DNA of 64,000 nt from contig DASWOB010000022.1 in the NCBI GenBank assembly GCA_036398925.1, positions 53,244 through 117,243 on the forward strand, in the 5' to 3' direction. The DNA comes from Thermoanaerobaculia bacterium. GTDB taxonomy: Bacteria; Acidobacteriota; Thermoanaerobaculia; Gp7-AA8. Below, in pieces: positions 2,512 through 60,856 of the stretch. Under the pieces are notes generated by a model that made no database searches, was not told where the DNA came from, and saw only the letters and a list, made by a program, of their open reading frames with translations. Position numbers and translations under genes: made by a program. Each line of letters starts with the position of its first letter. The first letter of the stretch is position 1.

Positions 2512-4512
2512 TCAGCGGCTTCGGATGCCGGCCAGCAGGGTCCGCGCGGCGGCCCGTTGTTCTTCAGGAGCGGCGCTTTTCAACAGCGCTTCGTATTGCG
2601 CGGCCGCTTCCTGCACTCTTCCGGATTCCTGCAGGGCGATGCCGAGATTGAGCCGCGCTTTGTGGAAATCAGGCTGCAGGCGGATGGCCGTTTCGAAGGA
2701 GCGAACCGCTTCCGCGGGGCGTCGGCTCTGCACGAGGATGACGCCCAGTCCATTGTGCGGATCGGCGTAATTCGGCGACAGCTCGATCGCCTTCCGGTAC
2801 GCCGTCGCCGCGTCGCCGACGTTGGCGAGCGCACGCAGCGCGTTGCCGGCGTTGTTCCATCCGCGCGCATCGCGGGGATCGAGCTCGGTGGCGCGGCGGA
2901 AGGCATTCGCGGCAGCCTGCGCGTCGCCGCGCTGGATGAGGATCACCCCGATCGCGTTCTGCGTCGCCGCGCGCAGTGGGTCGAGCCGCGCCGATTCGGT
3001 GAGGGCCGCCAGCGCTTCATCGAGCTCGTTCGCTTCGGTCAGGGCAACACCGAGGTTGTACCAGGCGTCGGCGTCGGCCGGTGCGAGGGCGACCGTTCCG
3101 CGAAGGAGATCGACGGCGCTCTCGTTCTGCCCACCGTCGCGCTGCAGGCGCGCCAGGGCGGAGCGGAAGACCGGATTGTAGGGATCGCGGCGGACGAGAT
3201 TTTCGAGAACCGGAATGGACGTCCGTCCTCGCTCGAATTCGGTGAAGAGCGCGACCATCGCCTTCGGATCGGGACGCGTGGCGCGCCCCTGGACCGGCTG
3301 CGGCGAGACATAGCCGAGGCTCTCGAGCTTGCGGCGGGTCTCCTCGTCGACGCGCACGGCGGCCGGTACGACGGCGGTCTGGCGGATGGCGGTGAGGCGC
3401 GGAAGGAGCTCGCGCGCGGTGCGGCGTTCGTTGCTGATGACGTTGCGGATCTCGCGGGGATCGCCGGCGAGGTCGTAGAGCTCGGGATACGGCGCGCTGA
3501 TGACTTTCGTGTTCCTGTTGCGCAGCGAGGCGAGCTCGTTCCACCCGAATGTCAGCGGGTATTGCGTCTCCGCGTAAAGATCGACGGACGGAAGCGACTC
3601 GGCCAATACGTTGCGGCCGTCGACTTTGGGGAACTCGATCTCCAGCAGCGCGGCGACGGTCGGCGCGAGATCGACGGAGCTGACCGGCTCGCGCACGACG
3701 CGCGGTTCGACGTCCGGGGCGGCGATCAGCATCGGAACGTGGAGGGTGGACTGATAGAGAAGGAGGCCGTGCGTCCCTTCGCCGTGCTCGCCGAGCCCTT
3801 CGCCGTGATCGCCGACCACGATGACGATCGTGTTCTTCGTGTCGATCGCGCTGAGCAGCCGGCCGAGCTGCTGATCGACGTAGGCCACTTCGCCGTCGTA
3901 CGTCTGCGGATGCGGCGCGGGCGGCGCGTACGGCGCGTGCGCGTCCCACAGGTGCACCCAGGCAAACGAGGGCTGCTCGCTCGCCCCACCGAGCCACGCC
4001 ACTGCCCGGTCGACGACCGCATCGGCGCGACGCGCCGCCTCCAGCGAAACGTCGCCGCTCGAATCGCGCGGAATCTCGTCGTCGTACGTGTCGAAGCCGC
4101 GATCGAGACCGAAACGGTGATCGAGCACGAATGCGCCGACAAAGGCCGCGGTGCGATAGCCGTTGCGGGAGAGCGTCGTGGCGAGCGTTTCGCGGTCGGC
4201 CGGAAACGTTCCGGCGCCGTTGTTGCGCAATCCGTGATGGAGCGGGAGAAGGCCCGAAAGAATGCTCGCGTGCGCGGGCAACGTCAGTGGAACGGGCGAC
4301 TGCGCCTGCTCGAAACGAACGCCTTGCGCCGCGAGCCGGGAGAGATTCGGCGTCGTCGCGCGATCGGCCCGGAAGGTATCGAGCGTGATCAGTACGACGT
4401 TGTACTTTGGCGTTTCACGGGCGCACGCGGCGAGAAGGAGGAGCAGCGCGAGAAACGAACGATGAACGATGAAGGATGAGCGATGAACGGAGCGAGGCCA
4501 ATCCCAGTTCAT
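2512..4512 (-). CDS. Sulfatase-family hydrolase (alkaline-phosphatase superfamily) fused to C-terminal TPR repeats; probable lipoprotein (lipobox LAAC)
   Basis: 666-aa ORF. The N-terminus has NVVLITLDTFRAD and a later GDHGE motif typical of sulfatase/AP-superfamily enzymes. The C-terminal roughly 250 aa are TPR-like (AWYNLG, NAGNAL, NGLGVIL). The signal peptide ends LLLLLAACA. The start codon is embedded in a 30-bp inverted repeat (see feature 4462-4540). Confidence 0.8.
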   Translation of the reverse strand: MNWDWPRSVHRSSFIVHRSFLALLLLLAACARETPKYNVVLITLDTFRADRATTPNLSRLAAQGVRFEQAQSPVPLTLPAHASILSGLLPLHHGLRNNGAGTFPADRETLATTLSRNGYRTAAFVGAFVLDHRFGLDRGFDTYDDEIPRDSSGDVSLEAARRADAVVDRAVAWLGGASEQPSFAWVHLWDAHAPYAPPAPHPQTYDGEVAYVDQQLGRLLSAIDTKNTIVIVVGDHGEGLGEHGEGTHGLLLYQSTLHVPMLIAAPDVEPRVVREPVSSVDLAPTVAALLEIEFPKVDGRNVLAESLPSVDLYAETQYPLTFGWNELASLRNRNTKVISAPYPELYDLAGDPREIRNVISNERRTARELLPRLTAIRQTAVVPAAVRVDEETRRKLESLGYVSPQPVQGRATRPDPKAMVALFTEFERGRTSIPVLENLVRRDPYNPVFRSALARLQRDGGQNESAVDLLRGTVALAPADADAWYNLGVALTEANELDEALAALTESARLDPLRAATQNAIGVILIQRGDAQAAANAFRRATELDPRDARGWNNAGNALRALANVGDAATAYRKAIELSPNYADPHNGLGVILVQSRRPAEAVRSFETAIRLQPDFHKARLNLGIALQESGRVQEAAAQYEALLKSAAPEEQRAAARTLLAGIRSR

Positions 4513-4540
4513 CGTTCATCCTTCATCGTTCATCGTTGAT
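4462..4540. repeat. 30-bp near-perfect inverted repeat (hairpin) made of GAACGATGAA-type microrepeats at the pccB/sulfatase junction
   Basis: 4462-4491 is aacgatgaacgatgaaggatgagcgatgaa. 4508-4537 is ttcatcgttcatccttcatcgttcatcgtt. The second is the exact reverse complement of the first with one mismatch. The loop is about 16 nt. It sits directly after the pccB stop (4541) and contains the sulfatase ATG at 4510-4512. Confidence 0.75.
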
Positions 4541-6067
4541 CTACAGCGGGATGTTGCCGTGTTTTTTCGGCGGGTTCTTGTCGCGTTTGTTGCGCAGCAT
4601 GGCGAACGTGGTGATCAGCTTGCGGCGGGTGAAACGCGGCTCGATGATCTCGTCGACGTAGCCACGCTCGGCGGCGATGTAGGGGTTGGCGAATTTCTCT
4701 TTGTACTCCGCGACCTTGGCCTCGCGATCGCTGGCACCGCGATAGAGGATGTTCACAGCCCCTTCGGCGCCCATAACGGCGATCTCGGCGGTCGGGTACG
4801 CGAAGTTCATGTCCGCGCGGATGTGCTTCGAGTTCATGACGCAGTACGCGCCGCCGTAGGCCTTGCGGGTGATGACCGTGACCTTCGGGACGGTTGCTTC
4901 GGCGAGCGAATAGAGCAGCTTTGCGCCATGAATGATGATGCCGCCGTACTCCTGCGCCGTTCCGGGCAGAAATCCCGGCACGTCTTCGAAGACCAGCAGC
5001 GGGATGTTGAAGGCGTCGCAGAAACGAACGAAGCGCGCGCCTTTGCGCGACGCGTCGATGTCGAGGACCCCCGCGAGAAAGGCGGGCTGGTTGGCGACGA
5101 TGCCGATCGACTGGCCGTTGAGGCGGATGAAGCCGACCACGATGTTACGGGCGTAGTGCTGGTGCACCTCGAGGAAGTGCGATTCGTCGGCGATTGTGGT
5201 GATCAGCTCGCGGATGTCGTACGGCTGGTTGGGGCTCTCGGGGATGAAGGAGTCGAGCTGGGTGTCGACGCGATTGACGTCGTCTTTGGTAGCAACGCGC
5301 GGCGCCTCCTCCATGTTGTTGGACGGCATGTAGGAGAGGAGCTCGCGAATCAGCGCGATGCAATCCTCGTCCGATTCGGCGGCGAAGCTGGCCACGCCCG
5401 AGACCTGGTTATGAGTGTCGGCGCCGCCGAGCTTTTCCTTCGTCACCTCTTCGTGCGTGACAGTCTTGATGACGTCTGGACCGGTGACGAACATGTAGCT
5501 CGTCTTTTTCACCATCAGGATGAAGTCGGTGATGGCGGGCGAATAAACGGCCCCGCCGGCGCACGGCCCCATGATCGCGGAGATCTGCGGTACGACGCCC
5601 GAGGCGAGCGTGTTGCGGAGGAAGATGTCGGCATAGCCGCCGAGGGAGACAACGCCCTCCTGGATGCGCGCGCCGCCTGAGTCGTTCAGGCCGACCACCG
5701 GCGCGCCGTTCTTCATCGCCAGATCCATGATCTTGACGATCTTCGCGGCGTGCGTTTCGGAGAGTGAACCGCCGAAGACCGTGAAGTCCTGCGCGAAGGC
5801 GTAGACCAGGCGGCCCTGAATCGTGCCGTAGCCGGTGATGACACCGTCGCCGGGGACGCGCTGTTTTTCGAGGCCAAAGTCGGTGGAGCGGTGGGTGACG
5901 AGCTGATCGAGCTCCTGGAACGAACCGGGATCGAAGAGGAGGCTGATGCGCTCGCGCGCGGTCAGTTTTCCTTCATTGTGCTGGCGGTCGATGCGGGCCT
6001 GACCGCCGCCCATCTCGCTTTCGGCTTTGCGGCGCTCGAGCTCTTGCAGTTTTTCTTCGCGTGACAT
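4541..6067 (-). CDS. pccB: Propionyl-CoA / acyl-CoA carboxylase carboxyltransferase (beta) subunit
   Basis: 508-aa ORF with full-length similarity to the PccB/AccD5 carboxyltransferase family. Motifs include [31 protein letters not shown] and [13 protein letters not shown]. Confidence 0.9.
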
Positions 6068-10021: not shown

Positions 10022-10130
10022 TCATAACCTCAAGATGTGGAGCACGGCGGTGCGGCACCGCCGCGCCCGGGCCGGGATTTTAAATTATGATCCCGAGTCT
10101 GTTTGTGAAATCCACATCGAGGTCAGCCAG

Positions 10131-12230
10131 ATGAAGGTTTACGCGGGTCCTGACATTCGCAACGTGGCGATCGTCGGGCACAACGACACGGGCAAGACGA
10201 CCCTGGTTTCACAGCTCCTCTTCAACGCCGGCGCGACCACGCGCCAGGGCCGGATCGAAGATGGAACGACCACCACGGATTTCGATCCGGATGAGATCGA
10301 GCGAAAGCATTCGATCTCGGCGGCGATCGCGTACGCGGAGTGGAAGAACACGAAGATCAACCTCCTCGACACGCCGGGCTTCGGCATCTTCATCATGGAA
10401 GCGAAGGGGGCGATGCGCGTCGCCGACTCCGCGGCCATCGTCGTCAGCGGCGTGACCGGCGTCGAAGTCACGACCGAGCGGGTCTGGAAGTTCGCGGAGG
10501 AGTTTCACCTGCCGCGCATCCTGATCGTGAACAAGATGGACCGCGAGCGCGCCTCGTCCGCACGCACGCTCGACGCGCTGCAGAAGAAGTTCGGCAAGAA
10601 CATCGTCCCCCTCCAGCTCCCGCTCGGGGAAGAGAAAGACTTCAGCGGCGTGGTCGACCTCATTTCCATGAAGGCTTACCAGTACGCCGCCGACGGCTCG
10701 GGCAAGGTCGAGGTGGTGGACATCCCGGCCAGCCACAAGGCGGACGCCGACGAATGGCGCGAGCGGCTGATCGAGAAGGTCGCGGAAGGCGACGACACGC
10801 TGATGGAGCGCTTCTTCGACCAGGGCGGCCTGTCGCAGGAAGAGCTGATCGATGGCCTCAAGCGCGAGGTCGCGCATCATCAGATCTACCCGGTCCTCTT
10901 CGCCTCGGCGTCGCACAACATCGGCGGTCATCCGATCCTCGATGCCTTCGTTTCGCTGCTCCCCTCGCCCGATGACGTCAAAGAGGTGCGGGGAACGAAT
11001 GCGAAGGGCGAACCGCTGACGTTCGATCGCCGGCCTGAGGCCTTCCCCTCCGCGCTCGTCTTCAAGACCTTTTCCGACCCGTTCTCGGGCCGCGTGTCGC
11101 TCTTCCGCGTTTACTCCGGCACGATCACCAGCGATCACGCCTACTGGAACAGCACCCGCGAGCACGAGGAACGCATCGGCAAGCTGCAGGTGCTGCAGGG
11201 GAAGACCCAGACCGCGGTGCAGGAGCTGCGCGCCGGTGACATCGGCGCGGTGGCGAAGCTGAAAGATACCGCCACCGGCGACACCCTCTGCGCGAAGGAC
11301 CACCAGATCCGCGTGCCGCACATCGACTACCCGGAAGCGGCGATCGCTTTTGCCGTGGAGCCGAAAGCGCGCGGCGACGAGGACAAGCTCGGCGCGGCCA
11401 TCCATCGTCTCATCGAAGAAGATCCGACCATCAAGTTCGCGCGCGACGAGCAGACCAAGGAGTTCCTCATCAGCGGTCAGGGACAGCTGCACGTCGAGAT
11501 CGTCGTCGCGAAGCTGAAGAAAAAGTACAACGTCGACGTGGTGCTCCATCCGCCGAAGGTGCCGTACCGCGAGACCATCACCAAGCCGGCCGACGCGCAC
11601 GGGCGGCACAAGAAGCAGTCGGGCGGCCACGGCCAGTTCGCCGACTGCAAGATCACGGTCGAGCCGCTGCCGCGCGGCGCCGACTTCGAGTTCGTCGACG
11701 AGATCTTCGGCGGCTCGATCCCCCGCCAGTACATCCCGGCCGTCGAGAAGGGCATCCAGGACGCGCGGGTGAAAGGCTACCTGGCCGGCTTCCCGATGGT
11801 CGACTTCCGGGTGCGGCTCAAGGATGGGCAGTACCACGACGTCGACTCGAGCGAAATGGCGTTCAAAATCGCTGGCTCGCTCGCCTATCAGGACGCGATG
11901 CAGAACGCCCGGCCGACGCTGCTCGAGCCGATCATGCACGTCGACATCTCCGCGCCGGCCGAATACGTCGGTGACATCATGGGCGACCTCAACGCGCGGC
12001 GCGGCCGCGTGGAGGGCGTCGATGCCGAAGAGGAAACGCAGACCATCAAGGCGCGTGTGCCGTTCAGCGAGATGCTGACCTACGGCTCGACGCTACGCTC
12101 GATCACGCAGGGACGCGGCACCTTCCACATGGAGTACTCGCATTACGAGGAAGTGCCGAAGCAACTGCAGGAAAAGATCATCAACGAGTCGAAGAAGGGC
12201 CACGGCGACGCCGCGGCCGCGCACCACTGA
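10131..12230 (+). CDS. Elongation factor G paralog (EF-G2-type translational GTPase)
   Basis: The ORF track starts at GTG 10035. The likely real start is the ATG at 10131 (MKVYAGPDIRNVAIVGHNDTGKTTL...), preceded by gagg. It has G1-G4 motifs, DTPGFGIF in place of the canonical DTPGHVDF, and EF-G domains II-V downstream. Confidence 0.85.
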   Translation: MKVYAGPDIRNVAIVGHNDTGKTTLVSQLLFNAGATTRQGRIEDGTTTTDFDPDEIERKHSISAAIAYAEWKNTKINLLDTPGFGIFIMEAKGAMRVADSAAIVVSGVTGVEVTTERVWKFAEEFHLPRILIVNKMDRERASSARTLDALQKKFGKNIVPLQLPLGEEKDFSGVVDLISMKAYQYAADGSGKVEVVDIPASHKADADEWRERLIEKVAEGDDTLMERFFDQGGLSQEELIDGLKREVAHHQIYPVLFASASHNIGGHPILDAFVSLLPSPDDVKEVRGTNAKGEPLTFDRRPEAFPSALVFKTFSDPFSGRVSLFRVYSGTITSDHAYWNSTREHEERIGKLQVLQGKTQTAVQELRAGDIGAVAKLKDTATGDTLCAKDHQIRVPHIDYPEAAIAFAVEPKARGDEDKLGAAIHRLIEEDPTIKFARDEQTKEFLISGQGQLHVEIVVAKLKKKYNVDVVLHPPKVPYRETITKPADAHGRHKKQSGGHGQFADCKITVEPLPRGADFEFVDEIFGGSIPRQYIPAVEKGIQDARVKGYLAGFPMVDFRVRLKDGQYHDVDSSEMAFKIAGSLAYQDAMQNARPTLLEPIMHVDISAPAEYVGDIMGDLNARRGRVEGVDAEEETQTIKARVPFSEMLTYGSTLRSITQGRGTFHMEYSHYEEVPKQLQEKIINESKKGHGDAAAAHH

Positions 12231-12235
12231 GTGAC

Positions 12236-12354
12236 GAGGGCCGAGAGTAGAGGGCCGAGGGCCGAGGGAGCAGCCTCATTCCCTTGTCCCTCGGCCCTTG
12301 TCCCTCGGCCCTTGTCCCTCGGCCCTTGGCCCTCGGCCCTTGGCCCTCGGCCCT
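12236..12354. repeat. Hairpin built from tandem microrepeats: (GGGCCGAG)x3 arm versus (CCCTCGGCCCTTGK)x6 arm. It forms the EF-G terminator, followed by a T-rich tract.
   Basis: 12236-12268 is gagggccgagagtagagggccgagggccgaggg. 12282-12354 has six tandem 13-mers ccctcggcccttg(t/g) that are complementary to the left arm in several registers. tgtcttattgtttttcg follows. It lies between the convergent EF-G and PEGA genes. Confidence 0.75.
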
Positions 12355-12357
12355 GTC

Positions 12358-12990
12358 TTATTGTTTTTCGAGCGTGACGCGCAGCCGGGCCACGTCCTGC
12401 TGGGCGTCTTCCGCGGCGGTGACGATGAACTGGCGCTCGCGGTAACCGTCGGCCACGGCGCGGATGGTGTAACTGCCGGCTTGCGGCAGTTCGTAGATTT
12501 CATCCGTCGAGTCGAACTGCCTCGCCTCGCCGATCGGCATGTCGTTCACGTAGAGCATCGCGTCGGGCGGGGTGATCTCGAAGATCACGCCGCGCCGCGC
12601 CCACGTTCTCACGGTCGCGCTGACGCCGCCGGGGCCGCCGCTGACGACGGCGCGAGCATCGCCGCTGACCGGTTCGTTGGCCGATGGGACATTCTCTCCA
12701 TTGTCGCCCGGCACGACCAGCGACGCGCCGGCCTCCGGCTCTCCCGGAGGGGCCGGGCTGGTGGCGGTACGCTGCGCGCCGTTGCCCGGCACCATCTGCA
12801 CGAGCGTGCCGTCTCGATAACGCAGCCCGGTCATCACCGCGAGCGCCGCCAGTGCCGCGAGCACGACGCCGATGGCCACCGGCACCCAGCGGGGCATCGG
12901 TGCGGATTCGGGCTCGGGTGGCTGCGGCGGCTCTACCGCGGGCGGTTCAGGAAGTTGCTCCGTCATCATTCTCCGCCTGCGCGTTGTCAT
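12358..12990 (-). CDS. Membrane-anchored PEGA-domain-like protein
   Basis: 210-aa ORF. It has an N-terminal TM helix (WVPVAIGVVLAALAALAVMTGL), a Pro/Gly-rich linker and a C-terminal YTIRAVADGYRERQFIV segment resembling PEGA domains. Confidence 0.45.
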   Translation of the reverse strand: MTTRRRRMMTEQLPEPPAVEPPQPPEPESAPMPRWVPVAIGVVLAALAALAVMTGLRYRDGTLVQMVPGNGAQRTATSPAPPGEPEAGASLVVPGDNGENVPSANEPVSGDARAVVSGGPGGVSATVRTWARRGVIFEITPPDAMLYVNDMPIGEARQFDSTDEIYELPQAGSYTIRAVADGYRERQFIVTAAEDAQQDVARLRVTLEKQ

Positions 12991-28705: not shown

Positions 28706-29589
28706 TCACTCCCAGCTCGTGCCGTTCATCTCCGCGACGATCTTCGCCACTTCGATGTAGTCGGCGTTCTCCCCGAGTTGCTTGAGCGCTCCGGTGAACA
28801 GTTGCTGCGTCAGGGCGAGCATCGGCGTCGAGGCGTGCAGTTGATGCGAGAGACTGCCGGCGATGCGGATGTCTTTGTCGTGGTGGGCGAGCTTGAAGAC
28901 CAGCGGCCACTGGCCGTCGCGCAGACGCATCGGCAGCAGGTTCTCCGACGCGTTGGAACGGCCGCTGCCGGAGTTCGTGACCTCGAGGGCGGTCTTCATG
29001 TCGATGCCGAGCTGTTTGGCCAGCAGCAGGCACTCGGAGGTGATCCAGACCGTGGCGCCCATGATGGAGTTGGTCAGCACCTTGATGGCGTGGCCAGCGC
29101 CGACGTCGCCGACGTGAATGATCTTCTTTCCGTTCAGCCGCAGCACTTCCTCGGCGCGCGCAAAGTTCTCCGCTGAGCCGCCGATCATGATCGTGAGCGT
29201 GGCGTTCTCGGCCCCGACGATCGCTCCGGTGACCGGCGCATCGACGAAGCCAACCTCTTTCGCCGCCAGCCGTTTCGCCGTTTCGCGGCCGACGTTCGGA
29301 TCGCCACTGGTGGCGTCGATCCAGAGCGTGCCGGGCTTCAGATACTCGATCAGTTGATCGACGACCTCATCGACCTCTTTGCTGGTCGGGAGGATGGTGA
29401 TGATCACCTCCGTACCGCTGATCTCGCGCAGATCGTGCGCGAGGTGCGAGCCGTGCTCCCGCGCGTGCCTCTCGGCTTTCTCGCGGGTGCGGTTCCAGAC
29501 CAGCACGTCGTGCTCTTTGGCGAGGTGGCGCGCCATCGGGAAGCCCATGGCGCCGAGGCCGATGAATCCGATCTTCATGGGCAGGATCA
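28706..29589 (-). CDS. 3-hydroxyisobutyrate dehydrogenase-like NAD(P)-dependent oxidoreductase (6-PGDH NAD-binding family)
   Basis: The protein from M(ILP)MKIGFIGLGAMGFPMARHL has the classic HIBADH N-terminus, and the C-terminal helical domain is present. The real start is the ATG at about 29577-29589. The ORF-track start at 29869 is an artefact of translating the 21-bp repeat array (LPLPA repeats). Confidence 0.8.
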
Positions 29590-29693
29590 TACCGGGTGAA
29601 CGGGCCGGCTTCGGTGGCAACGAGCGGGTCGCTGTCGAGCCGTCGAGCGGCCTGACCGCGGAAGCAATCTCGCTGACGACGAAAGAGTGCGTG

Positions 29694-30075
29694 CTGGCGA
29701 TGCAAGCGCGATCGCTGGTAAGGGAAGGGCGGTGCGCCGGCAATGGAAGCGTGTTCGCTGGCAATGGAAGGGCGAGCGCTGGCAACGGAAGCGCGACCGC
29801 TGGCAACGGAAGCGCGTTCGCTGGCAACGGAAGCGCGACCGCCTGCAACGGAAGGGCGAGCGCTGGCAACGGAAGCGAGCTTTCTTACGTTGCAAGCCGC
29901 CCCGCTTCACTTGCCAGAGAACCTGGGTACGGAAGTCAGCGTGCGTTGTTGAGTTGCCAGCGGTCGCGCTCCCGTTGCCAGCGGTCGGCCTTCCGTTGCC
30001 AGCGGCCGCGCTTCCGTTGCCAGCGGTTGCCCTTCCGTTGCCAGCGGTCGTTCTTCCCGTGGCAACTGCCTTTTC
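29694..30075. repeat. Large imperfect palindrome: about 9 tandem 21-bp units (GCTGGCAACGGAAG + 7 variable nt) followed by about 6 units of the reverse complement (CGTTGCCAGCGG...CTTCC)
   Basis: 29737-29880 has repeats ctggcaa(c/t)ggaag(c/g)g(c/t)g(a/t)(c/g)cg with 21-nt period. 29950-30070 has cgttgccagcggnnnnncttc units that are exact reverse complements of the left units. A roughly 70-bp central spacer separates the arms. The array lies between the divergent HIBADH-like and DUF853 genes. Confidence 0.85.
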
Positions 30076-30217: not shown

Positions 30218-31774
30218 ATGACGAATTTCGACGAGACGTATCGCGCTGCATACGGCTTCCCCGATCCCTCGATCACCATCGGTCACGTGCTGCGCGACGG
30301 CAAAGCGTCCGGCGAGCTCCCCATCCGCATCCCGCTGCGGATGATGAACCGCCACGGCCTGATCGCCGGCTCGACCGGCACCGGCAAGACCCGCACGCTG
30401 CAACTCCTGGCGGAGGGGCTCTCGCGCGCGGGCGTGCCGGTGTTCCTCGCCGATGTGAAGGGCGACCTGGCGGGCATCGGCACGCCGGGCGTGGCGAACG
30501 ATCGGCTCAACGCGCGCGCGGCCGGCGTCGGCGCGACGTTCACGCCCGAGGCGTTTCCGGTGGAGTTTTTCAGCCTGACCGGCAGTCGCGGCACACAGCT
30601 CCGCGCGACGGTGTCTTCGTTCGGGCCGGTGCTGCTGGGGAAGGTGCTCGACCTGACCGAGGTGCAGCAGAGCGTCCTGGCGATGGTCTTCAAATACTGC
30701 GACGACCGGAAGATGCCGCTGCTCGATTTCGACGATCTGCGCGGCGTGCTGACGTACCTCTGCAACGAAGGGAAGCCGGAGCTGAAGAACTACGGCGGCA
30801 TGTCTGCCGCGACGGTCGGCGTGCTGGTGCGGAAGATGGTGGAGCTCGAACAGCAGGGCGCCGCGAAGTTCTTCGGCGAGCCGGAGCTCGACATCCACGA
30901 CCTCACCCGCACGGTCGACGGCCGCGGCGTGGTGAACATCCTCTCGCTGGCCGACGTGCAGGACAAGCCGCGCCTCTACTCGGCGTTCCTGATGTGGCTC
31001 CTCGGGCAGTTCTACTACCGGATGCCGGAGGTCGGCGATCCCGACAAGCCGAAGCTGGTCTTCTTCTTCGACGAGGCGCATCAGCTCTTCGACGACGCCT
31101 CATCGGCGCTGGTGGAGCACATCGAGCAGGTGGCGCGCCTCATCCGCTCGAAAGGCATCGGCGTCTTCTTCATCACCCAGACCCCGAAGGACGTTGATGA
31201 GGACGTGCTGGCGCAGCTCGGCAATCGCGTGCAGCACGCCATCCGTGCCTTCACGCCAAAGGACGCGAAGAACGTCAAGGCGACGGCGTCGACCTTTCCG
31301 ATCAGCGAGCACGTCGACGTGGCCAAGTCGCTGACCACCCTCGGCATTGGCGAGGCGCTGGTGACGGTGCTCGATCCGAAGGGCGTTCCGACCGCGGTGG
31401 CGACCTTTCAGGTGCTCGCCCCCTCGTCGCTGATGACCGCGATCGACGACGCCGGCTACGCGCGGGCGCTGCAGTCGTCGGCAATCCACGCCAAGTACGC
31501 GACAGCCATCAATCGCGAGAGCGCGCACGAGATCCTCCAGCGCAAGCTCGCCGAGGCGGCGGAGGTGCAGGAGCCGGCTGCAGGCGGATCGGAGCGGCCG
31601 GACTACGGGGAGCCTGTGACCTTCGGGCAAAGGACGACTGCGCGACGAAGCTCAGCGCGCCCGCGAAAAAGCACCACCGAACGGGTGCTGCAGAACGCCG
31701 TCAATCAGGCCACCCGGACCGCCACGAGGGAGCTGACCCGCGGCATCGCCGGGATTCTCAAGCGAATGTTCTAG
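30218..31774 (+). CDS. DUF853-family (YjgR/HerA-like) P-loop ATPase
   Basis: 518-aa ORF with Walker A GSTGTGKTRT and Walker B VFFFDEAH. The overall architecture matches helicase HerA-like DUF853 proteins. Confidence 0.8.
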   Translation: MTNFDETYRAAYGFPDPSITIGHVLRDGKASGELPIRIPLRMMNRHGLIAGSTGTGKTRTLQLLAEGLSRAGVPVFLADVKGDLAGIGTPGVANDRLNARAAGVGATFTPEAFPVEFFSLTGSRGTQLRATVSSFGPVLLGKVLDLTEVQQSVLAMVFKYCDDRKMPLLDFDDLRGVLTYLCNEGKPELKNYGGMSAATVGVLVRKMVELEQQGAAKFFGEPELDIHDLTRTVDGRGVVNILSLADVQDKPRLYSAFLMWLLGQFYYRMPEVGDPDKPKLVFFFDEAHQLFDDASSALVEHIEQVARLIRSKGIGVFFITQTPKDVDEDVLAQLGNRVQHAIRAFTPKDAKNVKATASTFPISEHVDVAKSLTTLGIGEALVTVLDPKGVPTAVATFQVLAPSSLMTAIDDAGYARALQSSAIHAKYATAINRESAHEILQRKLAEAAEVQEPAAGGSERPDYGEPVTFGQRTTARRSSARPRKSTTERVLQNAVNQATRTATRELTRGIAGILKRMF

Positions 31775-43827: not shown

Positions 43828-45168
43828 CTATGCCGCGGGGAGGCGCACTTCAAATGTCGCTCCGCGGCCACCCTCGCGATTCCAGACCGCGATCCGGCCG
43901 CCGTGCAGGACCACCAGGTGCTTGGTGATGGCCAGCCCCAGGCCGGTGCCGGGGACGTTCTGGGAGCGGCTCCGGTCGACCCGGTAGAAGCGGTGGAAGA
44001 TCCGTTCGAGCTCGGCCGGCGGAATCCCCTCCCCCTCGTCGGACACGCGCACCACCGCCTCCTCCCCTTCCTGCGCCACTTCGATCAGCACCTCTCCCCG
44101 TCCCCCGCCATGCTTCCACGCGTTGTCGAGGAGATTCGAGACGATCTGCTGGGCACGCTGAGAGTCGACGTTGGCCCGTGCCGGCTCCCCCTCGACGCGA
44201 AATACCAGACCGTCGGCGCGGCCGCGGAACTCGCTGCAGAGCTCCTCGGCCAGTTCGCGCAGGTCGACCGCCCGCCGCTGCAGCGAGACCCGTCCCGCTT
44301 CGATGTTGTTCAGGTCGGAGAGGTCCTTCACCAGCCGCTCGATCCGCCCGAGCTGCCGCAGCATCACCTCCCGCAACTGGCGCTCGAGCTCCGGCTCGAC
44401 CCCCTCCTCCAGCGTCTCCACCGCGCTGCGCAGGCCGGCCAGCGGCGTCCGCACCTCGTGGGAGAAGTCGTCCAGGAACTCCTTCCGGATGCGCTGCAGC
44501 CGTTCGAGCTGGGTGACGTCGATGAAGAGCGCCACCGCCGCGATCTCGTTCGATGCCTCCACCGGGAAGACGCGCACTTCGATCTGCCGCTCGTGCATCT
44601 CGATCCGGTCGTTCGACGGATGCCCCTGCAGCGCTTTGTCGAGCGCCTGGACGATCGACTGCTGCCGCACGACCTCGAGAAAAGACCGGCCGATCGGATT
44701 CGCACCGCCGCCGAAGATCTCCGAGACGCGTGGATTCGCGAACACCACCCGGCCGCGCGGATTCACAGCAATCAAGCCTTCGCCGAGGGAGGCGACGATC
44801 TCCTCCATCGCCGCGCGGTGCTCCTCGTGCGCCTGGCGCTGGCGAAGGATCGTCGCGCGCAGCTCTTCGACTCCGCGGGCGATGTCATCCAGCTCGCCGT
44901 GAAACACGCGGTCGGCGATCGGCCTGTCGACCTGCCCCTCCGCCAGCGCGCGCGTCCGCTCCGTCAGGAGGTCGAGATCGTTCGCACGCCGTACCGCCCA
45001 GAGAAAGACGCCGCTCCACGGCAGGAGGAAGAGGAGAAAGCTGATGATGGCCAGCACCACCGCCGCCGGCTGCTCCACCCCGGCCCGATCGAGCGCGGCG
45101 CCGAATCCCCACGCCACCGCGATGGCGATGACGAGCGAAACGTAAAGCAGGAGTCGTAAGGGATGCAT
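43828..45168 (-). CDS. phoR: Sensor histidine kinase (PhoR-like)
   Basis: Likely start is the ATG at 45168 (MHPLRLLLYVSLVIAIAVAW...). It has two TM segments, then a HAMP/PAS-like region, the H box FSHEVRTPLAGL, and N, G1 and G2 boxes (LDNAWKHG, GTGLGLAI). The ORF-track 5' extension translates the CCTCAAT repeat hairpin. Confidence 0.8.
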   Translation of the reverse strand: MHPLRLLLYVSLVIAIAVAWGFGAALDRAGVEQPAAVVLAIISFLLFLLPWSGVFLWAVRRANDLDLLTERTRALAEGQVDRPIADRVFHGELDDIARGVEELRATILRQRQAHEEHRAAMEEIVASLGEGLIAVNPRGRVVFANPRVSEIFGGGANPIGRSFLEVVRQQSIVQALDKALQGHPSNDRIEMHERQIEVRVFPVEASNEIAAVALFIDVTQLERLQRIRKEFLDDFSHEVRTPLAGLRSAVETLEEGVEPELERQLREVMLRQLGRIERLVKDLSDLNNIEAGRVSLQRRAVDLRELAEELCSEFRGRADGLVFRVEGEPARANVDSQRAQQIVSNLLDNAWKHGGGRGEVLIEVAQEGEEAVVRVSDEGEGIPPAELERIFHRFYRVDRSRSQNVPGTGLGLAITKHLVVLHGGRIAVWNREGGRGATFEVRLPAA

Positions 45169-45180
45169 GGCGGCTGCGCC

Positions 45181-45262
45181 GGATTGAGGATTGAGGGATT
45201 GAGGATTGAGGAAGAGGATCGCGCAGCCTTCCTCAATCCTCAATCCTCAATCCTCAATTCCC
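45181..45262. repeat. Intercistronic hairpin built from tandem heptamers: (ATTGAGG)x4 versus (CCTCAAT)x4
   Basis: ggattgaggattgagggattgaggattgaggaag ... cttcctcaatcctcaatcctcaatcctcaattcc. It fills the phoB-phoR intergenic gap, and its right arm overlaps the phoB stop codon. Confidence 0.8.
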
Positions 45263-50605: not shown

Positions 50606-50815
50606 CCTTCAACTTTAAGGGCGAACGCTTAAAGTTGAAGAACGATCGCTTCAACTTTGAGAACGATCGCTTCAGTTTTAAGAACGATCGCTTCAACTTT
50701 AAGAACAATCGCTTCAACTTTAAGGACGATCGCTTCAACTTTAAGGGCGATCGCTTCAGTTTTAAGGGCGATCGCTTCAACTTTAAGGACGATCGCTTCA
50801 ACTTTAAGGACGATT
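50606..50815. repeat. About 10 tandem copies of a 21-bp repeat (CGATCGCTTCAACTTTAAGGA consensus), AT-richer than the genome
   Basis: 50606-50815 reads aacgcttaaagttgaag aacgatcgcttcaactttgag aacgatcgcttcagttttaag ... gacgatcgcttcaactttaag. Each unit contains the palindromic CGATCG and the imperfect palindrome CTTCAACTTTAAG. It lies in the divergent intergenic region between pstS and gene 50933..51418. Confidence 0.85.
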
Positions 50816-54073: not shown

Positions 54074-54386
54074 GCTCTGTTCACTACCACTACGGTTACG
54101 ACCGACATTCCGTTAGGTTTCGTTCCCGTTACGAAATTGGCGGCAGGTACGGTAGCGTCTGTGCGAAAGCCAGCAGCGCAGCAGCACCACCGGCGTGTGG
54201 AAGAGTAACTGAAAGCCGGCCGCCCTTCTCCACGAAGTGAGTGGCCGGTGCGGTGTGGGCTTCCAGCCCACCCCTCGTCGTTGCGCCGGAGACGTCGCGT
54301 CGTCAGGTGACGCGGGCACGACTGTCAGGTGGCAACGCCTGTGCACGCTGGGCCTTTCGCCGATTGAATTGGATGGAGGAGTATCG

Positions 54387-55553
54387 ATGGCAACAGCACA
54401 GCCGACGGTCGACCATGACGAGATTCGCGAATGGGTGGAGGCGCGCGGCGGGCATCCCGCGGCGGTGCGCGCAACCGGATCGGGCAACGACCCCGGCATC
54501 CTGCGCATCGATTTCCCCGGCTTTTCGGGCGAGGACACGCTCGAAGAGATCGAGTGGGAGGAGTTCTTCGACTGGTTCGAGAAGAACAACCTCGCGCTCC
54601 TGCTCTCCGATGAAGAGGGCAACCGCTTCAACAAGCTGGTGAGCCGCGAAGCGCTGGCCGGTGCGTCGTCGTCATCGAAGCGCGGCTCGCGCGGAGGCGG
54701 CGCGAAGAAAGCCTCGTCGAAGACGTCGAGCAGCGGTGCGAAAAAGGCGGGCAGCTCGCGCAGCATGAAGAAGGAGTCGTCGTTGTCATCGCGCGGTGGC
54801 GGCAGCAGGAAAGCCGCGGCATCGACCAGGAAGGCCGCCAGCTCGAAGAAGGCCTCGTCGTCGACGAAGAAGGCCTCCGGCGCCGGATCGACCAGGAAGG
54901 CCGCCCCGGCGAAGAAGGCCGCGTCTACCTCCTCGAAGAAGAGCTCCACCAGCGACAAGTCGCGCGGCACCACCGCCAAGAAGACTTCGGCTTCGACGAA
55001 GAAGGCCTCAGCCTCCACGAAGAAAGCGTCAGCCTCCTCGAAGAAAGCCTCGGCATCCTCGAAGAAAGCCGCGGGATCCTCCAGGAAAGCCGCGACCTCT
55101 TCGAAGAAGACCACCACCAGGAAGAGCACCTCCACGAAAACCGCCAGTGCCGCGTCGCGTGGCGGCAGCAAGAAAGCCACGAGCTCGACGAAGCGCGCCA
55201 GCGGCCCGATCTCGAGCGGCGGCCGCAAAGCATCGGGCGCCTCCTCGAAGAAAGCCTCCTCCTCGAAAGGATCTTCGAAGAAGAGCAGCGGCAGCTCCGT
55301 CACCACCACCAACCACGACGAGATCCGCAACTGGGTCGAAGCGCGCGGCGGCTTCCCCGCGCACGTGAAACGCACCGGCTCGCGCCGCGGCGATCTCGGC
55401 GTGCTGCGCATCGACTACCCCGGCTTCTCCGGCACCGACACGCTGGAGCGGATCGACTGGGAGGAGTGGTTCGCCGCGTTCGACCGGAACAAGCTGGCCT
55501 TCCTCTACCAGGACAAACGCAACTCCCGGTTCTCGAAGCTGGTGGCACGCTAG
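54387..55553 (+). CDS. Protein with two copies of an about 75-aa conserved domain flanking an about 230-aa histone-H1-like Lys/Ser/Ala-rich linker
   Basis: ATG at 54387 with SD ggagga 8 nt upstream. N-terminal domain: TVDHDEIREWVEARGGHPAAVRATGSGNDPGILRIDFPGFSGEDTLEEIEWEEFFDWFEKNNLALLLSDEEGNRFNKLVSRE. C-terminal domain: TTNHDEIRNWVEARGGFPAHVKRTGSRRGDLGVLRIDYPGFSGTDTLERIDWEEWFAAFDRNKLAFLYQDKRNSRFSKLVAR. The linker is (KKAS/STKKASA)n. The ORF-track start at 54237 is an upstream extension. Confidence 0.6.
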   Translation: MATAQPTVDHDEIREWVEARGGHPAAVRATGSGNDPGILRIDFPGFSGEDTLEEIEWEEFFDWFEKNNLALLLSDEEGNRFNKLVSREALAGASSSSKRGSRGGGAKKASSKTSSSGAKKAGSSRSMKKESSLSSRGGGSRKAAASTRKAASSKKASSSTKKASGAGSTRKAAPAKKAASTSSKKSSTSDKSRGTTAKKTSASTKKASASTKKASASSKKASASSKKAAGSSRKAATSSKKTTTRKSTSTKTASAASRGGSKKATSSTKRASGPISSGGRKASGASSKKASSSKGSSKKSSGSSVTTTNHDEIRNWVEARGGFPAHVKRTGSRRGDLGVLRIDYPGFSGTDTLERIDWEEWFAAFDRNKLAFLYQDKRNSRFSKLVAR

Positions 55554-58599: not shown

Positions 58600-58665
58600 A
58601 GCGTTCCTCGGGGTTCCTCGGGTCCGGGTTCCGCCGAGGAACCGAGGAGCTCCGAGGAACCGACG
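58600..58665. repeat. Convergent-gene hairpin built from tandem nonamers: (GTTCCTCGG)x3 versus (CCGAGGAAC)x3
   Basis: gcgttcctcggggttcctcgggtccgggttccgccgaggaaccgaggagctccgaggaaccgacgaacc lies between the YdiJ-like stop (58508) and the KGG protein stop (58675). Confidence 0.75.
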
Positions 58666-58674
58666 AACCGGCTC

Positions 58675-59091
58675 TTACGCTCTGTCGCGATTCGAGAGCG
58701 TGTTGTTGTCGTTCGTGTTCTCGCGATCGCGCTCGCGGTTCCCGGACGACGAGAAGCCGCCGCCGTTGCGCTCGAAGGCACTCCGCTCCTCGTTGATTTC
58801 GCGCACGAACGGCTGGCCGCCCGTGTTCTGCGCGACGTCGTTGCCGCCGCCGCTGCTGCCGGCCGCACGGGCACGTGCGCCGCGGCTGTGGCCACCTTCG
58901 CGGCCGATCGCGGCCATGTGCGCGCGATCCCGGCTCACCGCCTCGCCGCCTTTGCGGCCGGCTACGCGAGCCTCTTCCGAAGTGAACTCGTGAGCCGTAC
59001 CTTTCGCGTGAGCGGCGCGTCCGCCTTTGCTCGCAATCTCACGCTGCTTGTTCGGATCCATCGACGCAAAACCGCGCTTGCTGGTTGCCAT
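58675..59091 (-). CDS. KGG-repeat general stress protein (YciG/Con-10-like)
   Basis: ATG at 59091 with SD aaggag: MATSKRGFASMDPNKQREIASKGGRAAHAKGTAHEFTSEEARVAGRKGGEA...IGREGGHSRG. It has repeated KGG/EGG stress-protein motifs and a Gly/Asn-rich tail. The ORF-track 5' extension is junk. Confidence 0.7.
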   Translation of the reverse strand: MATSKRGFASMDPNKQREIASKGGRAAHAKGTAHEFTSEEARVAGRKGGEAVSRDRAHMAAIGREGGHSRGARARAAGSSGGGNDVAQNTGGQPFVREINEERSAFERNGGGFSSSGNRERDRENTNDNNTLSNRDRA

Positions 59092-59173
59092 GAAGTGTCT
59101 CCTTCCGGGGTTGAATGAAGCAGTACCGTGTCCCTCACCGTACTTGCGTTTGCGAGTTATATGGACCAGCACG

Positions 59174-60745
59174 ATGCATGCCTGTCGCGCTGCGGCACCC
59201 CGAATTTCCCCGAATCGGGCCGCGCATGTTTTTTGCGTTGGGTGCAAAGTCGTGCAGCAGGCATCGACGTCTCTCTGGAACGCCACCACCCCGCTCCCCC
59301 CACCAAGGCCACTCACCGGTGACCTTCACGTCGACGTGGCCATCGTCGGCGCGGGCATTACCGGCCTGACCGCGGCGGTCCTTCTCGAAGAGCGCGGCCG
59401 CACCGTGGCGGTGCTCGAAAAAGCGGCCATCGCCTCCGGCGAGACCGGCAACACCACCGCGCACATCACCGAGGCGGTCGACGCGCGCTACCACTATCTG
59501 CGCCGCGCCTTCGGAAAAGACGAAGCGCGCCGGGTGGCGGAGGCCTCCCACGCCGCGATGGAGAAGATCGCGGAACTGGTGGAAAAGTATTCGATCGACT
59601 GCCGCTTTCGCCGCGTTCCGGGCTACCTCTACACCGAAAAACGCAAGTACATCGCCGGCGTCAAGAACGAAGCCTCAGCGGCGCAGGAGGCGGGCCTCGA
59701 CGTCCGCTGGCAGGAGCAGGTCCCGCTGCCGTTTCCGACCCGCGGCGCGGCTGTCTTCGCCAACCAGGCCCAGTTCCATCCCGGCCGCTACGTCACCGCG
59801 CTCGCTTCGCGCGTTCAGAATCTCTTCACCGGCACGCTGGTCACCAGGATCACCGAGGGCGGTCCGTGCGTCGTCGAGACCGAGCGCGGACGCGTTTACG
59901 CCAGGAACGTGCTGATGGCGAGCAACGTCCCGATCGCCGGTTTCCAGACCGTCCACACCAAAATGACCCCCTACCGCACGTATGCGATCGCCTTCCTGGT
60001 CGACGACGAACATCCGGAAGGTCTCTTCTGGGACACCGCCGATCCGTACCACTACACGCGCTGGCAGGACACCGACGAGGGGACCTACCTCATCGTCGGC
60101 GGCGAGGACCACAAGGTCGGCGACGAAGAAGACACCGAGGCCTGCTTCGAACGCCTGCTGCAGTACGCCACCGAGCAGTTCGGCGTAAAGCCGGTGCGCT
60201 ACCGCTGGTCCGGTCAGATCATCGAGCCGCACGACGGGCTGCCGTTCATCGGCGGCTCGGGTCCGCTCTTCATCTCCACCGGCTATTCGGGCCAGGGGAT
60301 GACCATGGGCACCCTCGGCGCGATGATCTGCACGGACCTCATCACCGACGTCGAGAATCCGTGGGCACCGCTCTTCAACCCGATGCGCGTGCCGGCGCGT
60401 GGCTCCGTCCGCGAGTTCCTCGCCCAGAACATCGGATTCGCCACGCAGGTGGTCTCCGACCGCCTCACCGCGCGCGGCGTCGAAGCGACCGAAACGTTCG
60501 ATGTCAAATCAGGCGAGGGGAAGATCCTGGCCATCAACGGCCGCAAGGTGGCGTGTTACCGCGACGAAGCGGGAGCGCTGCACGGCGTATCGCCGGTCTG
60601 CACCCACATGCGCTGCGACGTCGCCTTCAACGCGGCGGAGCGGACATGGGACTGTCCCTGCCATGGATCGCGCTTCACGCCGGATGGGGATGTGTTGAAC
60701 GGCCCGGCCAGGACGCCGCTCGAGAAGATCGAGCTGCCGGAGTGA
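59174..60745 (+). CDS. FAD-dependent oxidoreductase (DAO-like) fused to a C-terminal Rieske [2Fe-2S] domain
   Basis: It has the FAD dinucleotide-binding motif VDVAIVGAGITGLTAA, with the C-terminal Rieske ligand boxes CTHMRC and CPCHGSRF. The true start is uncertain: ATG 59174, or GTG about 59252 giving MQQASTSLW.... The ORF-track start at 59027 overlaps the divergent KGG gene. Confidence 0.7.
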   Translation: MHACRAAAPRISPNRAAHVFCVGCKVVQQASTSLWNATTPLPPPRPLTGDLHVDVAIVGAGITGLTAAVLLEERGRTVAVLEKAAIASGETGNTTAHITEAVDARYHYLRRAFGKDEARRVAEASHAAMEKIAELVEKYSIDCRFRRVPGYLYTEKRKYIAGVKNEASAAQEAGLDVRWQEQVPLPFPTRGAAVFANQAQFHPGRYVTALASRVQNLFTGTLVTRITEGGPCVVETERGRVYARNVLMASNVPIAGFQTVHTKMTPYRTYAIAFLVDDEHPEGLFWDTADPYHYTRWQDTDEGTYLIVGGEDHKVGDEEDTEACFERLLQYATEQFGVKPVRYRWSGQIIEPHDGLPFIGGSGPLFISTGYSGQGMTMGTLGAMICTDLITDVENPWAPLFNPMRVPARGSVREFLAQNIGFATQVVSDRLTARGVEATETFDVKSGEGKILAINGRKVACYRDEAGALHGVSPVCTHMRCDVAFNAAERTWDCPCHGSRFTPDGDVLNGPARTPLEKIELPE

Positions 60746-60763: not shown

Positions 60764-60856
60764 TGGCGGAGAGAGAGGGATTCGAACCCTCGGTAGAGCT
60801 TTAGACCCTACGGCGGTTTAGCAAACCGCTGGTTTCAGCCACTCACCCATCTCTCC
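60764..60856 (-). tRNA. tRNA-Ser (anticodon GCU), class II with long variable arm
   Basis: The reverse complement folds as GGAGAGA-UG-GGUGAGUGGCUGAAACC-A-GCGGU UUGCUAA ACCGC-variable arm CGUAGGGUCUAAAGCUCUACCG-GAGGG UUCGAAU CCCUC-UCUCUCC-G-CCA. Anticodon loop UU-GCU-AA. The T-loop GTTCGAATC is present and CCA is encoded. Confidence 0.8.

Follow-up and report, generated by a model that had tools for sequence, protein, structure and literature searches.

An inverted heptamer array fills the spacer behind the EF-G gene of a Thermoanaerobaculia bacterium: a probable slippage-built hairpin and its class in related genomes

Heptamer microsatellites have been known to be over-represented in bacteria since 2007; polymerase slippage has been proposed as the cause of this excess of simple sequence repeats (SSRs) (PMC4679880, PMC4692102). 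Heptamer repeats were reported in the cyanobacteria Calothrix and Nostoc, and TAACTGA repeats in Beggiatoaceae (PMC4679880). For inverted pairs of such arrays, the searchable literature offered Xanthomonas as the only precedent, where they were read through G-quadruplexes. The GGGAATC heptamer arrays of Xanthomonas form 70-75 convergent (G-rich first) pairs per genome (Rehm et al. 2015, PMC4692102), have a strong bias to adjoin or overlap a stop codon, and vary in length between related species while their type (single array or inverted pair) is kept; their function was unknown to the authors (PMC4692102). No report of heptamer or intergenic repeats in Acidobacteria or Thermoanaerobaculia was found in the searchable literature. 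In this study, we analysed a stretch of 64,000 nt from an uncultured soil Thermoanaerobaculia bacterium (GCA_036398925.1, contig DASWOB010000022.1, positions 53,244 to 117,243; hereafter the window), in which an inverted pair of heptamer arrays lies directly behind the gene of elongation factor G (EF-G). We consider this spacer to be, probably, a slippage-built inverted heptamer microsatellite whose arms have been kept paired; its hairpin may stand in for the canonical terminators of relatives.

The hairpin behind the EF-G gene

The window has a G+C content of 65.5%, and its EF-G was 84-85% identical to the EF-G of soil metagenome-assembled genomes labelled Thermoanaerobaculia (Acidobacteriota). 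Gene calls of the Joint Genome Institute (JGI) were taken from metagenome 3300034146, contig Ga0334964_000031, of which the window is a part, and tandem arrays were delimited with Tandem Repeats Finder (TRF). The junction is composed of the following features.

10035-12230, + strand: EF-G gene (open reading frame (ORF) list; Pfam GTP_EFTU, EFG_III, EFG_IV and EFG_C; identical JGI gene call).
12235-12270, no strand assigned: 5' arm of five G-rich heptamers, GAGGGCC, GAGAGTA, GAGGGCC, GAGGGCC and GAGGGA (TRF; paired in the minimum-energy fold).
12271-12278, no strand assigned: apical loop of the minimum-energy (proximal-register) hairpin (dot-bracket structure).
12279-12354, no strand assigned: C-rich 3' arm of about 10.6 heptamers, equal to 5.3 copies of CCCTTG(T/G)CCCTCGG (TRF; inverted-repeat registers; masked-register folds).
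12355-12372, + strand: T-rich tract TGTCTTATTGTTTTTCGA, overlapping the 3' end of the convergent gene, namely its last codons and its stop (12358-12360) (sequence; translation ...VTLEKQ*).
12358-12969, - strand: convergent gene for a 203-aa single-pass membrane protein with a beta-rich C-terminal domain (JGI gene call; translation).

The gap between the two convergent stops (12231-12357, 127 nt) consists almost wholly of repeats. The first repeat unit begins 4 nt beyond the EF-G stop TGA (12228-12230), and 3 nt separate the last unit from the stop codon of the convergent gene (12358-12360). TRF reported the 5' arm at 12235-12268 with period 7 and 4.9 copies (CGAGGGC), and the 3' arm at 12281-12354 with period 14 (two heptamers, CCCTTGTCCCTCGG), 5.3 copies and 98% matches; the 3' arm is double the 5' arm in length. 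The original prediction of a microrepeat hairpin at this junction was therefore correct as to the structure, and its threefold GGGCCGAG is present, but the 8-nt tandem unit that it described arose from copies overlapping by one base, the unit being 7 nt, and its six tandem units of the right arm are 5.3 copies of a 14-mer. Its label of "PEGA" for the convergent gene was not borne out, as this gene has no significant Pfam family and its best match was CarboxypepD_reg (E=0.055).

The hairpin has a stem of about 40 bp, in which the CCCTTG units of the 3' arm form G-U pairs on the + strand. The RNA fold of 12228-12372 reached -89.1 kcal/mol on the + strand (z -7.55), a value matched by 0 of 200 shuffles, and -82.7 kcal/mol on the - strand (z -6.1), so that the hairpin is 6.4 kcal/mol more stable on the EF-G strand than on the opposite one. 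It is the most stable 100-nt window within the 64 kb. The excess length of the 3' arm allows several registers, as had been predicted: six inverted-repeat pairings with 78-83% complementarity were found, and the distal register still reached -73.2 kcal/mol after the proximal units had been masked. A scan of the window at Rfam gathering thresholds returned one tRNA only and recognised no known RNA family at the hairpin. That sole match is a tRNA gene of 90 nt at 60767-60856 (- strand).

The history of the element was studied in 80 loci of up to 22 kb each around the EF-G orthologue in species-representative genomes, which together with the window make 1.41 Mb, and in an independent set of 80 metagenome loci (375 kb); loci are designated by L numbers. 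An exact look-up of the EF-G protein returned the source contig only, so strain indels were examined in sister species, in metagenome loci that came from different samples and matched each other pairwise at 96% identity or more across the final 450 nt of EF-G. Both differences fell in the 3' arm, namely a 14-nt (two-unit) indel between L103 and L107 and a 7-nt indel (AGACCAC) between L115 and L120. Such whole-unit indels confined to one arm are the signature of slippage, and the arms therefore gain and lose units by replication slippage, one of the two origins suggested by the original prediction, which had also proposed the comparison of lengths between strains. The window's own 3' arm, with its 98% agreement at period 14 and its length double that of the partner arm, points the same way. 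Downstream of EF-G in the near-identical strains L082 and L083/L087, L082 has lost the whole 3' arm of a palindrome of about 45 bp, the 5' arm being kept.

Between species, the units of orthologous arms were GAGGGCC (window), GAGGGAT (L130, L159) and GAGGGCA (L088, L101), each with the complementary change in the opposite arm. The window and L130 have a GTGAC flank in common, and the five-unit layout with a deviant second unit occurs in the window, L130 and L159. RNAalifold on these five sequences gave 18 conserved pairs; in 4 of them both sides have changed in a compensatory way, and these fall on positions 6-7 of consecutive units. EF-G itself is only 83-90% identical between the lineages that retain the element. 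These alignments show a junction element that drifts in sequence, with the units of an array changing jointly and the pairing of the arms kept. The deviant second unit of the 5' arm reads GAGAGTA (window, 12242-12248), GAGTAAT and GAGGGCA (L130, L159) in three orthologous lineages, and units 1, 3 and 4 are homogeneous within each of them; simple slippage-driven homogenisation does not explain this deviant unit.

The EF-G junction as a whole is highly variable. A paired microrepeat hairpin stands right after the stop in 24 of 158 orthologous junctions, with many unrelated units, and an unpaired array in a further 31 of 158. Canonical terminators with a stem and a T-run were found there in L001, L003, L022, L048, L051, L056, L058 and L062, and the heptamer hairpin of L002 carries a canonical terminator in its loop. 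In seven relatives, the spacer is 18 nt or shorter and holds no hairpin. The automatically assigned junction class "other strong structure" is uninformative, as high-GC coding DNA folds nearly as well.

A class of paired arrays in related genomes

The search was for pairs of tandem arrays in which the second array lies no more than 150 nt behind the first and is made of its unit in reverse complement. Each arm had to hold about three copies and the two periods had to be equal or multiples of one another, and weak cases such as the element at 58603 of the window were missed. This detector recovered 69 such pairs from the 1.41 Mb, a density of about one per 20 kb, compared with 2 elements in the same 1.41 Mb after shuffling and 0 paired arrays in controls of 150 kb of a 66% GC Ralstonia replicon and 50 kb of E. 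coli. The period was 7 in 49 of the 69 elements (71%), 8 in 10 and 9 in 6. The independent set of metagenome loci yielded 24 further elements, 17 of them of period 7. The class is shown to be abundant in, and specific to, this group of Acidobacteriota. The original prediction of a genome-wide mechanism, as opposed to an isolated terminator, was thus upheld, and the structures proved to be clade-wide in the related loci and not unique to the window.

Elements of the class had a median span of 103 nt and a median fold energy of -64 kcal/mol, with arms of about 33 nt. Half of those assessed (29/58) lay within 5 nt of a stop codon pointing into the element. At convergent junctions, both element edges were within about 25 nt of stops in 8 of 12 cases, and the element typically occupied the whole spacer. 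Among period-7 arrays of at least 2.8 copies, 97 were in pairs, 46 were unpaired and noncoding, and 26 lay in called coding sequence; coding arrays mostly had periods 6, 9 and 12. The units were diverse, with 33 distinct heptamers among 43 period-7 elements.

A second regularity was the polarity of the arms. In 61 of 69 elements, and in 20 of the 24 in the second set, a 5' arm rich in G and in purines (G 38%, C 18.5%) faced a C-rich 3' arm. This order is identical when read from either strand. The G-rich arm came first in 12/12 convergent, 39/45 co-directional and 9/11 divergent junctions. Ordinary intergenic stems (n=383) had no such polarity, being split 160 to 151; long non-repeat stems were split 14 to 2 with very small skews, and no inference was drawn from them, several being short-repeat or REP-like. 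Two readings of the G-rich arm were rejected. Shine-Dalgarno-like sites numbered 139, compared with 170 +/- 15 after shuffling, which speaks against an array of such sites. Stop triplets numbered 168, compared with 195 +/- 10 after shuffling, and most G-rich arms close no reading frame, which speaks against a three-frame stop-codon trap.

The original prediction had named four further sites of the same architecture in the window, and all of them proved real by TRF, inverted repeats and folds.

4457-4541, no strand assigned: second element, GAACGAT x4.7 against GTTCATC x5 (TRF; 31 nt at 97% complementarity; fold z -9.2).
29693-30057, no strand assigned: enlarged relative with a 21-nt unit, present as inverted arrays of 8.8 and 5 copies that lie 75 nt apart in a divergent promoter region (-261.6 kcal/mol, z -11.9).
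45181-45258, no strand assigned: third element, GGATTGA x4.4 against TCCTCAA x4.1 (TRF; fold z -8.0).
58603-58670, no strand assigned: fourth element, GTTCCTCGGG (10-mer) x2 against CCGAGGAA (8-mer) x4.4 (TRF; fold z -4.0).

Together with the EF-G hairpin, these are five elements with five different units and no common unit or flank; two are convergent, two co-directional (one clearly operon-internal) and one divergent, and four of the five follow the usual polarity. The exception is the 58603 element, the weakest of the set, whose first arm is pyrimidine-rich. It occupies a convergent junction, 4 nt from the stop of the gene for a KGG-repeat stress protein (58675-59316, - strand).

The element at 4457-4541 begins where a carboxyltransferase gene of the - strand ends (stop at 4541-4543), and it extends into the gene that follows, a sulfatase. 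In the related loci, junctions of a carboxyltransferase followed by a sulfatase always carried a hairpin or a pyrimidine-rich array alone, with related units (GAACGAT, AATGATG, AATGCAG, AAAGCAG, GCAGAAG, AAACCAG and GGATTGA). The sulfatase is a lipoprotein, and in 14 of 15 orthologues no stop interrupts its frame across the pyrimidine arm; the frame of L021 is off by 1 nt relative to L049. In L017, L049 and L050, the sulfatase start overlaps the upstream stop (GTGA); the heptamer array of L049 and L050 supplies the codons for the hydrophobic core of the signal peptide, which in L050 reads (V)KRSAFCLLPFAFCLLLSC. Start codons can lie within a 30-bp stem: among hairpin-bearing orthologues, the start is in the loop in L009 and L063, in the last 5'-arm unit in the window, L014 and L055, and deeper in the 5' arm in L016, L019, L020 and L043. 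The sole in-frame start of the window sulfatase is the ATG at 4512-4510 (- strand), in the last 5'-arm unit, and the 3' arm is predicted to be translated. In L020, both arms are in the reading frame, the purine arm as the charged n-region (MKAEGRRQKAEVRKNTRRK) and the pyrimidine arm as the hydrophobic region up to the lipobox. Some hairpins thus carry the start and coding sequence of the next gene; judging from these frames, they would be transcribed through and translated, and therefore could not be efficient terminators there. The 4457 element overlaps the sulfatase start and signal peptide, so that slippage could switch expression there, but no ON/OFF pair with a whole-unit difference was seen. 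For the EF-G element at 12236, a phase-variable contingency locus was rejected, as it sits between two stop codons.

The third element lies within a response-regulator/histidine-kinase gene pair (- strand). The regulator stop TGA (45256-45254) belongs to its first unit, the kinase ATG (45168) is 12 nt past its last unit, and no Shine-Dalgarno sequence was evident ahead of this ATG. A 31-bp heptamer hairpin fills the 85-nt gap between regulator and kinase (window 45166-45258), and the ratio of regulator to kinase expression could be set by it.

Several further repeats and genes of the window were recorded. The enlarged 21-nt arrays stand upstream of a gene for a HerA-like ATPase (30218-31774, +) and a 3-hydroxyisobutyrate-dehydrogenase-like gene; the listed ORF of the latter (28706-29869) over-extends into the repeats, because its Pfam match begins only at residue 99, and neither of the two long ORFs crossing the repeats of 29693-30057 had a Pfam match. 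Within a gap of 1.25 kb where our heuristic based on G+C at third codon positions (GC3) called no gene, a 21-nt unit (CTTCAACTTTAAGGACGATCG) is repeated directly 9.9 times at 50607-50814, with 87% matches; its first copy pairs with an inverted copy at 50626-50640 (CTTAAAGTTGAAG) to give a small hairpin. L024 (9403-9611) and L029 (4653-4942) hold similar arrays with a 21-nt unit. Subirana and Messeguer (PMC8161180) described tandem repeats of "constant size 20-21 nt, variable sequence", and the 21-nt arrays of the window match these. At 54978-55146, 21-nt and 15-nt repeats lie in frame inside a 432-aa ORF (54113-55411, - strand), and therefore would encode a repetitive low-complexity segment. 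The KGG-repeat stress-induced protein at 58675-59316 (- strand) was recognised as PF10685 (E = 1e-12), and the GC3 heuristic missed its gene by favouring an over-extended start of the neighbouring FAD-oxidoreductase/Rieske gene (59027-60745). Long non-repeat palindromes with a common core such as GTGGAGCGGCGGGCTTCAGCCC were found in L049 (15373-15436 and 17787-17843), L031 (16747-16812), L020 (13526-13593) and L012 (12134-12220); they look like a genuine REP-like dispersed family, separate from the heptamer hairpins.

Origin and possible role of the hairpin

In the account that we favour, a G-rich heptamer array followed by a complementary C-rich array makes up the whole intergenic spacer behind EF-G. 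The arrays would have grown in place at originally tight gene junctions until they met coding constraints, and the pairing of the arms would have been kept either by selection on the hairpin or by hairpin-templated correction. Correction of quasipalindromes by intramolecular template switching is established in E. coli genetics. A mutational process of this type would copy a change in one arm to its partner, which matches the compensatory pattern observed here. We hold this structural and evolutionary account with good confidence.

The functional step is more tentative. Transcripts of both convergent genes would end in a very stable stem of about 40 bp, and the most likely effect of this stem would be to slow or stop RNA polymerase and to block 3'-to-5' exonucleases, replacing the canonical terminators of relatives. 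Since some relatives carry canonical terminators at the EF-G junction, termination there is plausible, and so is a role of the hairpin at the 3' end of the EF-G mRNA; as a local function, impeding RNA polymerase and 3' exonucleases is a suggestion that we rate somewhat below an even chance. Such a 3'-end role might be a context-dependent use of the element and not the origin of the class.

Several results weigh against this interpretation. Over the 15 nt downstream, the T count was 3.0 for the sense and 3.9 for the opposite direction, and thus no U-tract enrichment was observed. At 45 co-directional junctions, the fold energies of sense and antisense differed by a mean of 0.06 kcal/mol, with sense better in 22/45, and selection at the RNA level as a property of the class (the G-U asymmetry test) was rejected, both strands being equally stable. 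Co-directional, divergent and convergent junctions had 0.067, 0.060 and 0.070 elements per junction, respectively, and gene 3' ends were not enriched. One element stands between a response regulator and its kinase, and another encloses the downstream start codon. The class is not one of canonical terminators. Furthermore, the concerted change between species could instead reflect repeated re-expansion from a conserved single-copy seed. As every locus surrounds the same gene, many elements are orthologous, and binomial p-values such as that for arm polarity in the 69 elements (p = 3e-11) overstate independence. Gene calls in the loci came from our own GC3 heuristic, in which stops are reliable and starts unreliable, because few stops interrupt the pyrimidine arm and ORFs are over-extended across it.

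The serious rival is a purely neutral or selfish by-product, in which heptamer slippage and hairpin-templated repair inflate short palindromes in unconstrained DNA. The equal frequency at divergent, convergent and co-directional junctions and the lack of strand asymmetry and of a U-tract are what it would predict, and it is in keeping with the extreme turnover of the EF-G junction and the existence of spacerless relatives. However, pure slippage does not predict the G-first polarity, which is absent in ordinary hairpins; moreover, the element has been kept at the same two junctions across lineages as divergent as those above, and the sulfatase frame has been preserved through the array in nearly all orthologues. 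We regard this rival as unlikely, with a chance that has to be taken seriously.

The polarity also suggests a bolder reading, which we consider doubtful: that the hairpins are a polar, U-tract-independent gene-boundary device, built and tuned in Acidobacteriota by 7-nt slippage. Pyrimidine-rich RNA on purine-rich DNA is the weakest class of RNA-DNA hybrid. With the purine arm first from both directions, the last-transcribed arm would always be pyrimidine-rich RNA that is weakly bound to the template; this weak hybrid could replace the U-tract, with the stem peeling the RNA away from its template whichever way transcription runs. This order of the arms would also keep the 3' arm largely stop-free and hence absorbable into the next gene, as in the sulfatase signal peptide.

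Action at the DNA level, as a cruciform, as an array of protein sites spaced by 7 bp (BIME-like) or as a G-quadruplex as proposed for Xanthomonas, is improbable. It would fit the equal stability on both strands and the presence of elements where no transcript end is expected, and the G-rich arm of the EF-G junction contains four GGG tracts; Xanthomonas GGGAATC arrays formed G-quadruplexes in vitro (PMC4692102). Most units of the class (GAACGAT, GGATTGA, AAAGCAG, GTTGTCG and others) have no G-tract, and the units are many; therefore, G-quadruplexes cannot account for the class in general. BIME elements bind gyrase and IHF. Here, no common motif is readable by a single protein.

We consider it quite improbable that the hairpin is an ordinary Rho-independent terminator of EF-G that is repetitive by chance. 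The original prediction had proposed a terminator because the hairpin is followed by a T-rich tract on the plus strand, and a GC-rich hairpin right after a stop codon and followed by such a tract is indeed present, at a junction where relatives have canonical terminators. However, the tract is coding sequence for the LEKQ* end of the convergent gene, and it is absent in L130, L159, L101 and L088, although these have the orthologous hairpin. Both in the minimum-energy fold and in a stepwise fold mimicking transcription, the stem of about 40 bp ends 34 nt ahead of the tract, which adjoins the stem only in the distal register, 16 kcal/mol less stable. A consensus terminator scan did not call the EF-G hairpin, and T-runs are not enriched across the class. 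The claim of an EF-G terminator is thus weakly supported, with the terminators of relatives speaking for it and the T-tract, the short spacers of the seven relatives that have no hairpin and the class data against it.

A copy of a mobile palindromic family, either REP/REPIN sequences mobilised by a RAYT transposase or a miniature inverted-repeat transposable element (MITE), is very improbable. Elements are intergenic, palindromic and numerous, and in places a unit recurs, such as AGTTCAA at 4 sites in 22 kb of L074, or the GATGGCG-type units of L020 at 3 paired sites (7842, 17241, 21520) and in an unpaired array after EF-G. This second origin offered by the original prediction fails on the lack of a common sequence, both among the five window elements and in the class at large, and on the lack of terminal inverted repeats and of target duplications beyond the arrays; at the EF-G and carboxyltransferase junctions, orthologous elements of different species have changed gradually in place. 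A MITE was rejected in particular, as strain differences are whole-unit indels in one arm, with neither terminal inverted repeats nor target-site duplications, and a CRISPR array was rejected because the units of the element stand head to tail without spacers. An assembly artefact of simple-sequence DNA, to be considered because the window comes from a short-read metagenome contig, has a negligible probability: the same architecture was found in many independent assemblies of differing types, including multi-megabase contigs and OY970380.1 (L032, titled whole chromosome; element 5560-5747), and orthologous elements agree between samples save for whole-unit indels. The mobile family and the artefact are effectively excluded.

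The paired arrays have practical consequences. Gene callers predict ORFs that are too long, running through a pyrimidine arm with few stop codons, and contigs may break at these arrays during assembly. If functional, the arrays would be a new means for high-GC bacteria to end or insulate transcripts.

Comparison with known systems

Rho-independent terminators, including bidirectional ones, resemble the EF-G element in having a stable GC-rich hairpin after stops and in their place at a convergent junction. They differ in that the stem here is several times longer, no U- or A-tract is conserved and the class is not enriched at gene ends. The REP (repetitive extragenic palindromic), BIME (bacterial interspersed mosaic element) and REPIN sequences of Enterobacteria and Pseudomonas act as mRNA 3'-end stabilisers and partial terminators, and REPs form one conserved sequence family per genome that is spread by RAYT. 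The likeness lies in intergenic palindromes that are often between co-transcribed genes; unlike REP/REPIN, our elements do not have a palindrome of about 20-40 nt shared by many copies, and they evolve in place.

With heptamer SSRs in general, the elements have in common that period 7 is the favoured unit of long SSRs in noncoding DNA and that slippage is the proposed source. The repeats of Calothrix, Nostoc and Beggiatoaceae are mostly direct arrays of few genome-wide units, with few inverted pairs in Nostoc and one in a Beggiatoaceae genome, whereas two thirds of the noncoding heptamer arrays here have an inverted partner.

The closest documented precedent, by analogy of architecture, is the inverted GGGAATC heptamer arrays of Xanthomonas. 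Both systems consist of 7-nt tandem units in intergenic DNA (TRF periods of 7 and 14 at the window element, period 7 in most of the class), have a G-rich 5' arm and a C-rich 3' arm, adjoin stop codons (at distances of 4 nt and 3 nt from two stops at EF-G), and vary in array length between relatives. In Xanthomonas, one G-quadruplex-forming unit is used genome-wide, whereas nearly every site here has its own unit, mostly without a G-tract; the phylum is another one, and arm compensation and the overlap with a translated signal peptide were not reported there. With probably hundreds of sites per genome and many units, this clade allows the architecture to be separated from any one sequence, and the features that persist are the period of 7, the pairing of the arms, the G-rich arm first and the adjacency to stop codons.

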